A stretch of DNA of 64,000 bases. Origin: an uncultured Bacillota bacterium (lineage in GTDB: Bacteria > Bacillota_I > Bacilli_A > RFN20 > CAG-826). The stretch covers positions 118,887 through 182,886 of the forward strand of contig CASEPN010000001.1 of NCBI GenBank assembly GCA_949289845.1, in the 5' to 3' direction. Position numbers and translations under genes: made by a program. Positions 36,491 to 46,393 of the stretch are shown here, in pieces (within the stretch, counting starts at the first letter, position 1; each line of letters begins with the position of its first letter). The notes beneath the pieces were generated by a model. It had not been told where the DNA came from and ran no database searches. It worked only from the letters and a program-made list of their open reading frames with translations.

Positions 36491-38026
36491 ATGAGAAAAG
36501 CATGGTCCCTCCTCCTTCCTCTTCTCGCCCTTTCCTCCTGCGTCCCCGAAGGGACGACGGGGGATTCTTCCTCGACGAAGGAGGAGCCTTCCTCTAGTTC
36601 CTCGGAAGAGATCGAGGGGGGTTTCTGGATCGAAGGCCCTTCCTTGCTCGACATCGGGGAACGGGGGCGCTACGAGCTCATGGGGGACGTCCCCGAGGGC
36701 GAGATCCATTGGGAAGTCGAGGGCGAGAGCCTCGTCGAGCCCTATGAGTACCCCAACCCCCTCTACTACGGCCTCACGGGGCTATATGAGGGAGAGGTCG
36801 TCCTCAAGGCGATGTTAGGGGACAAGGTCCTCTTCCCTTTCGAGATCGAGGTGAAGGACGTCGACTCGGGCTTCCTCGTGGACGCGGGGACCGGGAAGCT
36901 CGCGCTCGGAGGGAAGATGGAGCTTTCCTTCTCGCTTGATGGGGAGCCCCTTCCTGCGAAGGAACTCTCCTCCGTCTCGATCACGACGCTTTCCTCGCCT
37001 TCGGGGAAGGGGCTCGTCTCCTCCTATGAGGACGAAGGCCTCTTCCTACTCGGGGAGGAGCTCGGGAGCTTCCGCGCGGTCGCTTCCTACGAGGGCCTTC
37101 TCTCCAACCCCTTCGAGATCGAGGTGATTCCTTCCGTCGAGGGGAAGACGTACCTCCTGGAGGTGCTTCTTGAAGACGGGACGCCCGCGGAAGAGAACAC
37201 CATCCCGACCTCTTCCACGGTCACCTTCGTCCTCCGGGACGAGGAAGGGGAGGACTATCCCTTCCAGTGGGGCGTGGAGCTCCTCGAAGGGGACTCCTGG
37301 GTCCTCCAGGAGACAGAGGATCCCCATGTCTACGAGACCTACATCTGGTCCGAGGAGAGGCTCCTAATCGCTCCTGCCTTCCCCGGGGAAGCGCCCGCGC
37401 TCGCGGCGGAGGCCCTCGAACTATACGTGATGCACGAAGGGGACACCCCTCTTCTGGACTTCCATCTCGAGGATGAGGCTGGGAACGAGGTCGAGACGCT
37501 CTTCGTCAGCCCTGACGGGAGCACGAGGCTCCATATCGTCCCGGAGCGAGAGACGGACTACCTCGGCACCGCGAACGTCCACTGCGAGGACGAGAGGCTC
37601 AACCCCGGCCAGGAATGGGGCGAGGAGGGAGGGCGCTACCTCATCTTCGCCCCCGAGGAGGGAGGGAGCTACTCCCTTCTCGTCAGGTTCACGTTCGTGA
37701 AGAAGGAGTTCCCGGTCCACGTTATGCCGGAGGAGGCCGCCCTCGAGCTTGAGATCATGGGGACGGGCACGATGGACGGGGAGAAGTACTACGTCGGACA
37801 TACGGGCTCGATCACGGGAGGGTTCCCTTGGGAGGGGCCCATCTACTGCGACCTCGTCGACTACGACGTCGAGTACGTCTTCCTTGAGGGCGAGGACCTC
37901 GTCCGCATCGGGGAGGGACGGGACATTCATTTCCTTTCCCCTGGCACGGTGAGCCTATATGCGCAGATCAGGAACACCGAGGTCAAGAGCAACACCTTCG
38001 CCTTCGAGATCGAGCCCGAGGAATAG
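36491..38026 (+). CDS. acidic secreted lipoprotein, hypothetical (Ig-like repeats likely)
   Basis: 'LLLPLLALSSCVPEG' lipobox. Glu-rich, beta-rich repeats. Confidence 0.5.
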   Translation: MRKAWSLLLPLLALSSCVPEGTTGDSSSTKEEPSSSSSEEIEGGFWIEGPSLLDIGERGRYELMGDVPEGEIHWEVEGESLVEPYEYPNPLYYGLTGLYEGEVVLKAMLGDKVLFPFEIEVKDVDSGFLVDAGTGKLALGGKMELSFSLDGEPLPAKELSSVSITTLSSPSGKGLVSSYEDEGLFLLGEELGSFRAVASYEGLLSNPFEIEVIPSVEGKTYLLEVLLEDGTPAEENTIPTSSTVTFVLRDEEGEDYPFQWGVELLEGDSWVLQETEDPHVYETYIWSEERLLIAPAFPGEAPALAAEALELYVMHEGDTPLLDFHLEDEAGNEVETLFVSPDGSTRLHIVPERETDYLGTANVHCEDERLNPGQEWGEEGGRYLIFAPEEGGSYSLLVRFTFVKKEFPVHVMPEEAALELEIMGTGTMDGEKYYVGHTGSITGGFPWEGPIYCDLVDYDVEYVFLEGEDLVRIGEGRDIHFLSPGTVSLYAQIRNTEVKSNTFAFEIEPEE

Positions 38027-38070: not shown

Positions 38071-40326
38071 ATGAGAAGACCGTTCCTTGCCCTTTTCCTA
38101 TCTCTCTTCCTTCTTGCCTCCTGCGAGGAGCAGGGGGATCCCCTCGTGCCCCCCGAGCCCGCGGACGAGTTCTCCTTCGTCACCGAGGGCGGCGTCCTCG
38201 ACATCGGGGAGACAAGGGAGATCTTCTTTTTTCCCCGGAACGGGGCGAAGCCTACCTTCGAGATCGAGGGAAAGGGGGCGAGGATCCTCGACGTCGGGGA
38301 GGACTCCCTCCTCGTCCAGGGGATTGCGGAAGGGGGCTTCCTCCTGGAGGAGGCGAATAGCGGCGTCTCCCTTTCCCTATCGGTCGAGGACTTGTGGAGC
38401 GGATACTACCTCGAGGCGGACGCCATCTCCCTCATGGAAGGGGAGCGGGCCTCCCTCGCCCTCCATGGCCCCGGGGACGAGCTCCTTCCCTTGGAAGAGG
38501 GCATGCTCCGCCTTCTCCCCGGGAGCGCAGAGGCCTCCTTCCCCCTGGACGAGTTCGGGACCCCATCCCTCCAGGCGGACGGGACCGGGGAGATCCTCCT
38601 TTTCGCCGAGATGGAGGACGGGTCCGTCACGGACGTCCTTTCGATAAAAAGCACCATGTTCCTTGAGCCTCTCTATCTTTCCCTTGAAGGAGGGAACGGC
38701 GACTTCCGCCCCGGGGAGAAAAGGGAGCTCTCCCTCATGGACCGCTGGGGCGATCCTTATGAAGGGGACTGGGAGCCGACCATCAGGAACCTCGACATGT
38801 TTTCCACGCCTTTCGCCTTGGAAGGAAAGGAAATATCCGCGCTTTCCTCTGGGGAATGCGAGGTTTCCGCGAAAGTTGAGGAGGATGGATACGAAGTCCA
38901 GCCCCTCCGTCTCCTCTCCGCGGAGGAAGGGGAGAAGCGCCCCTACGAGCTCCGCCTCGTGAACGCCTATAACGAAAGCGACTGGGACGAGGACGGGCTC
39001 TGGATGAACCTCCAGGACGGGTATGGCTACGGCTTCTCTCTCTGGACGGACGTGGACGGCCCCAAGGGCTCGATCCAGGTCGAGTGTCTCGCCGGGGATC
39101 CCGAGGCCGTCCTTTTCGAAGTGGAAGAGGACTTCGGCTCCGGGCATATGGCCGATTGCTCCGTCCGTCCCATCAAGGAAGGCTCGGCGACCTACCGCGT
39201 GCGGATCGGGAGCCTATATAGCGAGGAGTACACCTTCCATGCGCTTCCTGGATGGAACTCCCGTCCTTCCCTTTCCCTGGAGGACGATGAGATCCCGGTG
39301 GGAGGGAAGACGAGGCTCCTCCCTTCCGTGGAAGGATCGGAAGGCGAGTACCTCTTCGACTATGTGGTCGTGGACGGGGAAGGGACCGCGAAGCTTCTCG
39401 AGGGCGGGGTCCTCGCCGGGGAGCGGGTCGGCTCGATGACCATCCAGGTGCGCCTCAGGGGAGAGCGCGGGCTTTGGGGCGAGTCGGTCGTCCTCGACGT
39501 AACGGAGGAAGGGAGCGGCGACCCCTACGTCGGGATGAGCCCGGAGGAGTTCTACCGGGACTACGAGCAGGCGGAGACGCTCCTGGACAGCTACTACCGC
39601 ACGAGGCACGGCTTCCTCTCGGGCTCGCTCGAGGTCCCGGGCCAGTACGCGGAGCTTTCCGAGGACCGCCCCATGGAGGACGGGCTATACGTCAAGAACA
39701 CATCCCTTTCCTTCTCCGAGGGCGGGTCCGCCTATACGGTGAGGGATAGCCAGGGGAACGAGTCGTTCACCATCTTCGAGGGCGGGGGCTACATCACCCT
39801 CGAGGAGGTCGCCGCCTATCTCTTCGCCTTCGGGGACGTCCCTGCCAACTATTGGGAGGACCGCTACGACTACCCTTCCCCTTCCTCAAGCGAGTGGGGC
39901 GAGTACCTCAGGCTCAACAACTCCTACTTCTCCGGGGACCAGGAGAGCTACCCTTACGAGCCCGCCCTTCCGGATATCTCCGGGATCGAAGGCGGGAGGA
40001 GCGACTACTATGAGGTCGACGTCGGGACGACGGGGACCTATACGGGTCCCTCCTTTCCCGTGAGGCCCTATAACGACGGCTACTCGATCACCCGCGGAGG
40101 GGCGAGGCTCGTCTACATGCGCTATACGGACGGGGAGGAAAGCCAGGCTCCCGCCCGGAAGGTGTTCTACACCTGGAACCACTACAACGACTTCCGCGAG
40201 TACCTGAACTACGAAGGGGGCTGGGGCGAGGCCTTCGGGAACGTGACCGCGGGGGGCGAGGTCGACGTCGTCGCCCCGGGAGGGCCGTCCCCTTACGTTC
40301 CAGTGGCGGAGAAGGGTCTTTTCTAA
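38071..40326 (+). CDS. secreted lipoprotein with C-terminal barnase/RNase-Sa-family ribonuclease domain
   Basis: Lipobox 'LLASCEEQ'. The C-terminal segment 'YYEVDVG..RGGARLVYMRYTDG..VFYTWNHYNDF' aligns to barnase 'TWREADINY..GFRNSDRILYSSD..IYKTTDHYQTF' with catalytic Glu, Arg, Arg and His conserved. The preceding 'ITLEEVAAYLFAFGDVPANYWEDR' matches barnase 'VADYLQTYHKLPDNYITKSE'. Confidence 0.6.
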   Translation: MRRPFLALFLSLFLLASCEEQGDPLVPPEPADEFSFVTEGGVLDIGETREIFFFPRNGAKPTFEIEGKGARILDVGEDSLLVQGIAEGGFLLEEANSGVSLSLSVEDLWSGYYLEADAISLMEGERASLALHGPGDELLPLEEGMLRLLPGSAEASFPLDEFGTPSLQADGTGEILLFAEMEDGSVTDVLSIKSTMFLEPLYLSLEGGNGDFRPGEKRELSLMDRWGDPYEGDWEPTIRNLDMFSTPFALEGKEISALSSGECEVSAKVEEDGYEVQPLRLLSAEEGEKRPYELRLVNAYNESDWDEDGLWMNLQDGYGYGFSLWTDVDGPKGSIQVECLAGDPEAVLFEVEEDFGSGHMADCSVRPIKEGSATYRVRIGSLYSEEYTFHALPGWNSRPSLSLEDDEIPVGGKTRLLPSVEGSEGEYLFDYVVVDGEGTAKLLEGGVLAGERVGSMTIQVRLRGERGLWGESVVLDVTEEGSGDPYVGMSPEEFYRDYEQAETLLDSYYRTRHGFLSGSLEVPGQYAELSEDRPMEDGLYVKNTSLSFSEGGSAYTVRDSQGNESFTIFEGGGYITLEEVAAYLFAFGDVPANYWEDRYDYPSPSSSEWGEYLRLNNSYFSGDQESYPYEPALPDISGIEGGRSDYYEVDVGTTGTYTGPSFPVRPYNDGYSITRGGARLVYMRYTDGEESQAPARKVFYTWNHYNDFREYLNYEGGWGEAFGNVTAGGEVDVVAPGGPSPYVPVAEKGLF

Positions 40327-40384: not shown

Positions 40385-43120
40385 ATGGAGATGGACATTT
40401 CGGAACGCGAAGGGCTGAGGGCCGACGGCCTTTCCCTTCGCTACAAGGACACCGGCAGGGTTGGTGTCGACTCTCTTTCCCTGGAACTTCCGGAGAACGG
40501 GCTCGTCCTGCTGACAGGCCCGTCCGGATGCGGGAAGTCCACCTTTCTATCCTTGGTCGGTTCCTTCGACAGCCCTGATAGGGGGTCCGTTTCCTTCAAG
40601 GGCTGGGAGATCACCTCTCTTAAAGGGAAGGGGCTCAGGGAGTTTCGGCGAGAGGTTCTCGGTGTCTGCTTCCAGGAGGCGAATCTTCTTCCAGGATTGA
40701 CGGTCAGGGAGAACCTTGCGCCCTACTGGAGGAGAAAGGACTCCGAGCGCATCATCCAGGAGCTCGGGCTCGCCAACCTTCTCGATACCCCCGCGCGATC
40801 CCTCTCCGGGGGAGAGGCGGAGCGCGTCGCGGTAGCAAGGGCGATCCTCAAAGGATCGTCACTTATCCTCGTGGATGAGCCGACGGCATCGCTCGACGGG
40901 GAGAACGGAGCCCAGGTAGCCAAGGTCTTGAAGGAGGCTTCCCGGAGCGCCCTTGTGATCGTGGCCTCCCATGACATAAGCCTTTTCGAGCCTTTCGCCG
41001 ATGTCCTCGTTCGCCTCAGGGACGGGAAACTCGTTTCCGCGGAAAGGCTGCAGGAACCGTTGCCTTATGAGGACGCGGAGTCGGCGGAACCCCCTTTTGA
41101 TCTCCGGAGGGAAGCCCGGACATTGCTCAAGGACCTTAAGAGGAGCCTCCCCTCCCACCCGGCGCGCCTTGTGTCGGGACTTCTTCTTTCGTTCCTCTCC
41201 CTCGCCGCCTGCTTCTCTTCCTTCTCTCTCCTCATGAGGGACGACGGATCGATCTCAAAGGATCTCGCGGTCTCCGGAAGTGAAACTTCTGTCCTAGGGA
41301 TGTCAAACCCTAATGCTCGTCTTTATCGGTCTGACCTTCCGGAAAGTTCTGTCCCTTTTTGCTCGGTTCCATCTAGTCCTCCTTGCATTCTCACTTCGTA
41401 TTTCATCGAGACATCAAGTTCCAGTTATAGCTTTGAGAGCTTGTTAGGTCCCTTTTTGACTGAATCAGTCGCCCCATACTCGCGTTCGGCTGAAGACGCC
41501 TTCCCCCTCCTTGCGGGAACATCCCCTTCCTCCGCATCAGAAGCGCTTATCTCCGACACGATGTTCCGTCAATACCAGGCATTTGGATTCGAAAATGATG
41601 GAATACGTCTTCCAGCCGGGTCATTCGATATCGATGGTTTCCTTGCCGCGGGACCCGAACTGATGCTCAGCTATCCGGTGAGGACGAGCGTCCGGGTCGT
41701 CGGCGTGTTCAAAGATGGATATGGTGATTTCTTCGACGCCTTCCGCGAGCAATGCGGGGATAGTCCGGTTGAGGTGAATTCCTCGCAGTACTGGCTTATG
41801 GAAGCGGCTGGTCGCGGAGCGCCTGGAGCCATTTTTCTTTCCGAGGACGCGTTCGGCCAGACAGTCGATATGCCGGACTCCTTCTGGGTCGGCAATAAGG
41901 AAAGGACAATGCTTTCGCTCTGGCGCGAAGAAACAGAGTTTCAATTCACCTATGTTGAAACACAACTTCCCCTTAACGTCGTCTATCCTTTCCAAAAGGA
42001 TGGGGGAGCCATTTTGCCCTACCCCTTGTTCCTGGAAATCTATTCGGAAACCCCTATCGGACACAAAGGGATCAAAGACTTCCGGTCGTTTGAAATTGGA
42101 GATTCCTGCAAGGACTATTCTTTATATTTTCCTGGAAATGCCTCTATCGGCGATTTGCTGAATGCAGATGTCCTTAAGTTTGCCGCTCTTTATTACCTTG
42201 ATAAGCATGGAGTGCCGGAAGGCGTGGATGTATCTGAGTATCTGGAGAAAGCGGAAAGAGATTTTCCGGATGTTGATTTTCATAAGGAGGGAGCCTTGGA
42301 AGCCTACTGGGCTCTATTAGTGTCCTCCTATAGCAGTTCCAATTATAAATGGGCTTTTTTGGAAGCGTTGATTTCGGATTTGTTCGAGGGCGAAGAACCA
42401 CTTGTTGCCAAGATTGCATCGGCTTCACGGAGTGTTGCTGCGTCAAGATTCGAGCCAATCGAGGTAACAATCTGCGGATATTCCCCTTTACTCGGGTATT
42501 CGCCCGCCGGCATATTCGTTTATCCCGGGGAGCAGGCATCCGAGACCATATGGGACAGCCTCTCGCAGGAAGATGTCGCCTACTTCCTTCCTCCTGAGGG
42601 GGAGAAGGACCGTCTGATGGACGAAGGGCTCAATGAGCGCTCTCTCATGGCGTTCAGCCCTTCCCTCGCCTCTTGGCAGGCGTTCACCATCTCCTCGTAC
42701 GGAACGCCCGGCCTAGGCATTTTAATAGGCATCATCGCCGTCTTCGCCGCTTTCGTTATGTTCCTATCGCTCGTTAGCGTCCTCTCCGGGTCGAATGCTC
42801 TTCTTGCGGGCGAGGACGCCCTCAGGAAGTCCCTAGGGGAGGGTATCGGAAGGGCTTACCTCCGCGGCTTCCTGGAAGCCTCGTTGGTCACGCTGATCGG
42901 CGGGATTCCGGCGCTCGTCGCGGCCGCCATCGTCTTCGCCGGGATGAACGGAGTTGCCGCTTCCGTCTTCCTGAATTCACTTTCCTACTATTCGCTGGAC
43001 GCGCTTGCTGTCATTGGCGCATTCGCCCTCTTCCTTCTCCTGAGCGCGCTCCTCGCGCTCCTCCTCCTTCCCTCCGGGGAGAAGAAGAGAATAGCCGCTC
43101 TTAAAAACAGATTTCGTTGA
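40385..43120 (+). CDS. ABC transporter, fused ATPase + FtsX/MacB-type permease with large extracytoplasmic domain
   Basis: Walker A 'GPSGCGKST', signature 'LSGGEAERVAVARAI', Walker B 'LILVDEPTASLD'. The C-terminal permease has FtsX-like TM helices. The internal region 41230-42560 has markedly lower GC. Confidence 0.8.
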   Translation: MEMDISEREGLRADGLSLRYKDTGRVGVDSLSLELPENGLVLLTGPSGCGKSTFLSLVGSFDSPDRGSVSFKGWEITSLKGKGLREFRREVLGVCFQEANLLPGLTVRENLAPYWRRKDSERIIQELGLANLLDTPARSLSGGEAERVAVARAILKGSSLILVDEPTASLDGENGAQVAKVLKEASRSALVIVASHDISLFEPFADVLVRLRDGKLVSAERLQEPLPYEDAESAEPPFDLRREARTLLKDLKRSLPSHPARLVSGLLLSFLSLAACFSSFSLLMRDDGSISKDLAVSGSETSVLGMSNPNARLYRSDLPESSVPFCSVPSSPPCILTSYFIETSSSSYSFESLLGPFLTESVAPYSRSAEDAFPLLAGTSPSSASEALISDTMFRQYQAFGFENDGIRLPAGSFDIDGFLAAGPELMLSYPVRTSVRVVGVFKDGYGDFFDAFREQCGDSPVEVNSSQYWLMEAAGRGAPGAIFLSEDAFGQTVDMPDSFWVGNKERTMLSLWREETEFQFTYVETQLPLNVVYPFQKDGGAILPYPLFLEIYSETPIGHKGIKDFRSFEIGDSCKDYSLYFPGNASIGDLLNADVLKFAALYYLDKHGVPEGVDVSEYLEKAERDFPDVDFHKEGALEAYWALLVSSYSSSNYKWAFLEALISDLFEGEEPLVAKIASASRSVAASRFEPIEVTICGYSPLLGYSPAGIFVYPGEQASETIWDSLSQEDVAYFLPPEGEKDRLMDEGLNERSLMAFSPSLASWQAFTISSYGTPGLGILIGIIAVFAAFVMFLSLVSVLSGSNALLAGEDALRKSLGEGIGRAYLRGFLEASLVTLIGGIPALVAAAIVFAGMNGVAASVFLNSLSYYSLDALAVIGAFALFLLLSALLALLLLPSGEKKRIAALKNRFR

Positions 43121-45823: not shown

Positions 45824-46393
45824 AGCCTTTCCGTCCCGCGAGGGGTTTCGCGAACTAAGCCTTATTAGCCCAAGTCATGCGCAAGGCGCTTTGCGGATGG
45901 CTGAGGCCTAAGTTTCTTCCTCTCCTCGCTCTCGCATCTAAGACGGACCGCGTCCATCTTTTTATATGGGCGCAGGGCCGCTCTGTACGCCATTTAAAGG
46001 TCTATGAGGACCGCGTCCCCGGGGATCTCCGCCCGCGAAGAAGCTTCGAGGGAGGCTGGCTCTGGGCGAATGGGTTCATCAGGTTGCCCGAGGTAAGGAA
46101 GGCCATCCTCCTTTTCCGTCAGGCGGCGATGGAGTAGGGAAGGGAGGGAATCCCGTCGCCTGGGCCTGGCAAGGGCGCTCGCCCACGAGACGAGCTCCCT
46201 TCATTGCGGGCGCCACGCGATGGGGGCCTTCTATGGGCTTAGTGCGCTTTATTATCTTGAAAACCCAGCAGAACCGAATTCCTTTTATCGAAAAAGAAAG
46301 CGCCATGCTCCTTGAGGAACTCATGGAGGCCAGGCGCATTCACCTTGAGCCGAACGAATGGGCGCCCTTCCTAAGGAAGGAGATCCTGTCTTC

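Follow-up and report, generated by a model that had tools for sequence, protein, structure and literature searches.

The gene at positions 38071–40326 of the window, by which we mean the whole 64,000-nucleotide stretch of DNA from an uncultured Bacillota bacterium analyzed here, raises the question of whether a bacterium carries a barnase-type RNase on a surface lipoprotein with no barstar gene beside it, and if so, for what purpose. A sequence-only reading had proposed such a protein and had left open whether its role is nutritional or antagonistic. Our analysis indicates that the core of the C-terminal region does belong to the barnase/RNase N1-T1 superfamily, though it has diverged strongly; that the protein is lipid-anchored and extracytoplasmic, with no barstar beside its gene; and that it probably digests extracellular RNA for nutrition.

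Organization of the Gene and Its Lipoprotein Product

The gene for the lipoprotein with the C-terminal RNase module (38071–40326, + strand, stop codon counted) encodes 751 aa according to the ORF list, and the ORF length, the signal peptide, and the lipobox LLASC with Cys18 were all present as had been described. The signal peptide with its lipobox L-A-S-C (aa 1–18, 38071–38124, + strand) was read from the sequence, and the lipobox pattern [LVI][ASTVI][GAS]C was found at MRRPFLALFLSLFLLAS-C18. Cys18 is predicted to be the lipidated N-terminus of the mature lipoprotein, and the equivalent alignment column is kept in >90% of 30 family members. The GC3 of the gene, 0.83, is typical for real genes of the source genome, and the identical protein occurs with the same neighbors on other assemblies. 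The acidic character noticed before was borne out by a pI of about 4.1–4.2 for both parts of the protein.

The conserved unit of the protein comprises 271 aa (481–751), in which a core of about 140 aa is flanked on either side by extra conserved parts; the variable N-terminal part therefore covers only about 480 aa, and not the 550 aa first estimated. This acidic N-terminal region, or “stalk” (aa 19–480, 38125–39510, + strand), is lineage-specific and predicted to be all-beta, with a pI of 4.1 and 95 D/E against 32 K/R residues. A homologue search with these 462 aa gave only four database matches, each at least 92% identical, and no Pfam match was found for aa 1–480. The AF2 model of the region consisted nearly entirely of strands, but its pLDDT of 38 made it unusable, and it was kept out of the fold search. 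The Ig-like repeats previously assigned to this region could not be recovered, as internal repeats were undetected (best self-match, E 0.012); Big_2 does occur at the N-terminal position in 4 of 30 relatives and in a phage homologue, and other Ig-like domains are also present in the family. The N-terminal region presumably serves as a spacer, a stalk that would keep the enzyme off the membrane.

Immediately upstream, on the same strand and across a 44-bp gap, lies a gene for a 511-aa lipoprotein without the RNase module (36491–38026, + strand), which had been regarded as a paralogue sharing the N-terminal region. BLASTP gave no support for this relationship (E 0.035), which emerged only from profile-profile comparison; hhalign of the mature regions of the two lipoproteins returned a probability of 91.5% and an E of 8.7e-7 over 402 collinear columns, against an E of 0.1 for a reversed control. 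The upstream product is accordingly described as distantly paralogous to the N-terminal region, and it is found upstream of the gene in loci L001 and L002 only, being absent from L003–L006.

A Conserved Module with Barnase-Type Catalytic Residues

Residue conservation in the module was counted in 148 divergent family representatives that are 34–66% identical to the query. The RNase core of barnase/N1-T1 type (aa 575–712, 39793–40206, + strand) contains R598, E630, E648, R675, R679, H704, and Y705, and the motifs quoted in the sequence-only reading were all present: VAAYLFAFGDVPANY at 580–594, YYEVDVG at 646–652, RGGARLVY at 675–682, and TWNHYNDF at 701–708. The four residues proposed as catalytic proved essentially invariant (E648, 140/140; R675, 140/140; R679, 139/140; H704, 137/138), and Y705 was kept in all 138 representatives counted at that position. 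As judged from the alignment, the catalytic Glu and His and the phosphate-binding Arg, Arg, and Tyr thus appear to stand at positions homologous to those of the superfamily. E630 lies within the conserved motif YPYEP..LP, is present in 138 of 145 representatives, and falls between strand 1 and strand 2, as expected. In barnase, the guanine-recognition loop is formed by Ser57–Glu60, and in T1 by Asn43–Glu46; the putative equivalence of YPYEP..LP with barnase FSNREGKLP comes from a by-eye alignment with no support from a tool.

The N-terminal subdomain of the module (aa 481–574, 39511–39792, + strand), marked by the motifs DPY... and YYRxxHxFxSG, is conserved across the family, always co-occurs with the RNase core, and is modeled with high pLDDT. 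In the divergent representatives, R510 was found in 139/139, S517 in 138/141, and G518 in 141/141, and the subdomain has no match in Pfam or the PDB. The C-terminal extension (aa 713–751, 40207–40323, + strand; NYEGGWGExFGNxTxGG...P.PYV) is likewise conserved, with invariant and near-invariant columns (W718, 120/137; N724, 108/133; G728, 124/127). The barnase chain ends about eight residues past its catalytic His, and barnase has no counterpart of this extension.

Relationship to Known RNases

Sequence similarity of the family to barnase, binase, RNase Sa, and RNase T1 (PF00545) falls under all curated thresholds. The query matched PF00545 with 14.5 bits (E 0.052), below the Pfam gathering threshold of 24 bits, the match spanning aa 644–710 against profile positions 52–96 of 98. 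The same catalytic half was matched by 29 of 30 family members, with a best E of 3e-4, and the phage homologue scored 18.6 bits, but no relative tested reached the gathering threshold. No matches at E up to 10 were obtained against the PDB by phmmer with the C-terminal 271 aa, nor by hmmsearch with a profile of 30 relatives, and Foldseek against the PDB returned nothing significant, with RNase Sa3 and Sa at E 3.7–5.3 and a TM of about 0.4. When the family profile was compared with barnase by hhalign, the first-helix motif alone was aligned (24 columns, probability 7%); Smith-Waterman found the identical short match, and when barnase, binase, Sa, and T1 were searched with the family HMM (hmmsearch), short motif alignments alone were obtained, one of them mis-registered. 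Among the 150 matches listed by an exhaustive profile search, only family members appeared, with no visible bridge to canonical barnases.

At the level of motifs, TLEEVAAY..PANY corresponds to barnase 6–30, GAARIVY to T1 GADRVVF, and NHYNDF to barnase DHYQTF. The predicted fold consists of an N-terminal helix on a four- to five-stranded antiparallel sheet, superimposable on barnase or RNase Sa; model confidence is low in two loops of the core. The assignment of a C-terminal barnase domain is thus upheld by the fold and the catalytic residues and not by PF00545, the PDB sequence and profile searches, or Foldseek; in our judgment, the lack of a significant PF00545 match for the single sequence is outweighed by the family-level and fold-level evidence.

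These search results also bear on the alternative that the module has a barnase-like scaffold but is no RNase, being instead a nucleotide- or polyanion-binding adhesin or another phosphodiester enzyme acting on teichoic acid or cyclic nucleotides, or that the fold assignment is wrong. This alternative would fit the subthreshold sequence matches to every known RNase and the non-significant Foldseek result, as well as the fact that half of the module (481–574 and 713–751) is without a known counterpart and yet contains the invariant R510, S517, and G518. We regard it as very unlikely.

Compared with barnase, binase, Sa, and T1, the family core has longer loops: its Glu and first Arg lie about 17 residues further apart, and its second Arg and His about 10. 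It sits in an obligate 271-aa module whose conserved parts of about 95 aa and about 40 aa those enzymes lack. The family protein is also predicted, from its lipobox, to stay lipid-anchored instead of being released, and its acidic character is one that Sa and T1 share but barnase does not.

Genomic Context and the Absence of a Linked Barstar Gene

The absence of barstar beside the ORF was confirmed, as the flanking gaps of 44 and 58 bp contain no small ORF and leave no room for a barstar-sized gene. A tblastn comparison with barstar covered the window and gave no match (best E 1.2), and the same search of 80 family loci found none (best E 0.4). PF01337 was not found in the precomputed Pfam annotation of neighbors, so that no barstar gene was seen adjacent to the family gene or in an operon with it; the family differs in this respect from barnase, which is accompanied by a barstar gene. 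Across 71 loci, no conserved neighbor was detected, whether small, immunity-like, or other. The gene itself lies among chromosomal housekeeping genes, such as those for LeuRS, the Rnf operon, and DegV, and in the family, neighbors linked to nucleotide metabolism (thymidine kinase, DHH/DHHA1, and ExoIII-like), themselves housekeeping genes, were present in subclades only.

Downstream lies a gene for a 911-aa fused ABC ATPase-permease (40385–43120, + strand; ABC_tran, 1.7e-29), which is a neighbor only. Its previous description as a MacB-type transporter was retained for the ABC ATPase domain and for a MacB/FtsX-like topology, in which some 480 aa of loop separate a single TM segment (259–285) from a hydrophobic block (769–900), but not for an FtsX match: no FtsX or MacB_PCD Pfam match was obtained at E ≤ 1, and the MacB model NF007826 matched the ATPase part only. 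The GC3 of this gene, 0.63, is below that of its neighbors, and it adjoins the lipoprotein gene in the closest relatives only.

An ORF with an Imm5_like match (45877–46137) was weighed as a candidate inhibitor but rejected, because it lies 5.5 kb downstream, with four genes and a tRNA in between, covers only positions 3–68 of the 129 in the profile, and has nothing similar near other family members. In the literature, Imm5 has been tied to deaminase and CdiA-CT toxins, not to barnase.

Distribution of the Family and Its Probable Role

The 271-aa module occurs in 1,655 clusters (about 55% identity), in 441 representatives at the 50% identity level, and in no fewer than 527 species genomes from gut Clostridia and Bacilli; several carriers are labeled Acholeplasmatales or Anaeroplasmataceae. 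The identity of the module is about 55% across these two classes of Firmicutes, and nearly all carriers are metagenome genomes from animal guts. Each locus gave a single match, with no cassettes; a plasmid search returned no family copies, and only one phage lineage carries the module, in combination with a secreted subtilase, which is likewise a digestive enzyme acting outside the cell. The family is so far unannotated, its members being labeled “hypothetical” or “Ig-like domain-containing” by the sources, and literature searches found no account of it.

Of the two roles left open earlier, the comparative evidence favors the nutritional or housekeeping one over the antagonistic one, because the module is kept at about 55% identity across the two classes, with one match per locus, because no immunity-like or conserved neighbor was present in the 71 loci, and because toxin-delivery domains and plasmid copies are absent and phage carriage is confined to the one lineage. 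An antibacterial or anti-eukaryotic toxin would require that the tip, held at the surface or shed, enters competitors and degrades their RNA, its inhibitor being encoded elsewhere or the toxin never being present in the cytoplasm of the producer. Barnase-type domains are indeed recognized as a toxin module of polymorphic toxin systems, some of them Sec-exported (PMC3482391); the family shares with the Tox-Barnase and barnase-barstar systems (Zhang et al. 2012, PMC3482391) a C-terminal barnase-fold RNase on a longer exported protein, the long N-terminal region preceding the enzyme recalls stalked toxins, and the Imm5_like ORF could be read as the remnant of an immunity family. Barnase-type toxins, however, pair specifically with Imm-Barstar, for which the family loci searched gave no match, and the partial Imm5_like copy belongs to a family that goes with other toxins and is unlinked to the present one. 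Moreover, the enzyme domain is conserved and the N-terminus variable, the reverse of polymorphic toxins; neither specialized secretion nor LXG, WXG, RHS, or other delivery domains were found, the proteins showing just the lipoprotein signal, along with Ig-like domains; cassettes and polyimmunity loci are missing; and the lipid anchor offers no obvious way into a target cell. We therefore consider a toxin function unlikely.

A surface RNase might also act mainly on signaling or structural RNA of the host or the community, such as host extracellular RNA or that of the biofilm matrix, so that its primary role would be host interaction or matrix remodeling and not nutrition. The gut origin of the carriers fits this proposal, as does the N-terminal region, which would lengthen the reach of the enzyme, and Mycoplasma membrane nucleases have been reported to act on host tRNAs, which they cleave, and on extracellular traps, which they degrade (PMC12848938, PMC9740415). 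However, neither sequence nor context points to host targeting, and the carriers include many free-living-style commensal Clostridia. Such a role, which overlaps with the nutritional one and is inseparable from it by sequence analysis, appears unlikely to us as the primary function.

A nutritional role has a precedent in Mollicutes, where surface lipoprotein nucleases for nucleotide salvage are established (PMC11729948, PMC12115388). Like these nucleases, for example MnuA of Mycoplasma bovis and the SNase-like enzymes (PMC11729948, PMC12115388, PMC3585158), the family protein is proposed here to be a surface lipoprotein nuclease that directs external nucleic acid to salvage. The folds and chemistries are unrelated: the Mollicute enzymes are metal-dependent, of SNase/thermonuclease or other types, and mostly sugar-nonspecific, whereas the family protein would be a metal-independent RNase of barnase type.

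Proposed Mechanism

RNase activity, base preference, surface exposure, the nutritional role, and the reason for the missing inhibitor are what we infer from the data above. In the proposed mechanism, the protein would be exported by Sec, and Cys18 would tether the mature form to the outer leaflet of the cytoplasmic membrane. From there, an acidic, all-beta N-terminal region some 460 aa long would extend, with the 271-aa enzyme module as its tip. The analogy with barnase suggests that Glu648 would act as the general base and His704 as the general acid, while the scissile phosphate may be bound by Arg675, Arg679, Tyr705, and Arg598, the last of which is replaced by Lys in most relatives. Cleavage would proceed by transesterification of the RNA, leaving 2′,3′-cyclic and then 3′-phosphate ends, with no need for a metal ion. 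The subdomain of about 95 aa and the extension of about 40 aa may stabilize the core or widen the substrate-binding surface. Extracellular RNA would thus be cut at the cell surface, and nucleotides, nucleosides, and phosphate would become available.

A cytoplasmic inhibitor of barstar type may be unneeded because the protein would cross the membrane unfolded and fold only outside. Barnase is itself secreted by Sec and nonetheless depends on barstar; therefore, export alone is not a full explanation of the missing inhibitor. A bolder proposal is a barstar-independent RNase in which the 95-aa subdomain, through R510, S517, and G518, gates folding or inhibits the enzyme in cis, so that it stays harmless until it is outside the cell, or else remodels the active site for a new class of substrate. 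That would make the family a major, hitherto unrecognized source of extracellular RNA degradation in the animal gut, occasionally spread by phages together with a secreted protease. We consider this proposal quite unlikely.

Significance

The family offers a natural test case for how an enzyme of barnase type can be produced safely without barstar, and its alignment could be the starting point for a Pfam or NCBIfam model of its own. Should the module prove to be an active RNase, a surface enzyme that current annotation overlooks altogether would be present in hundreds of species of gut Clostridia and Bacilli. Such an activity would bear on the supply of nucleotides and phosphate in gut Firmicutes, especially in Bacilli with reduced genomes, and on what becomes of extracellular RNA from the diet, microbes, and the host in the gut.

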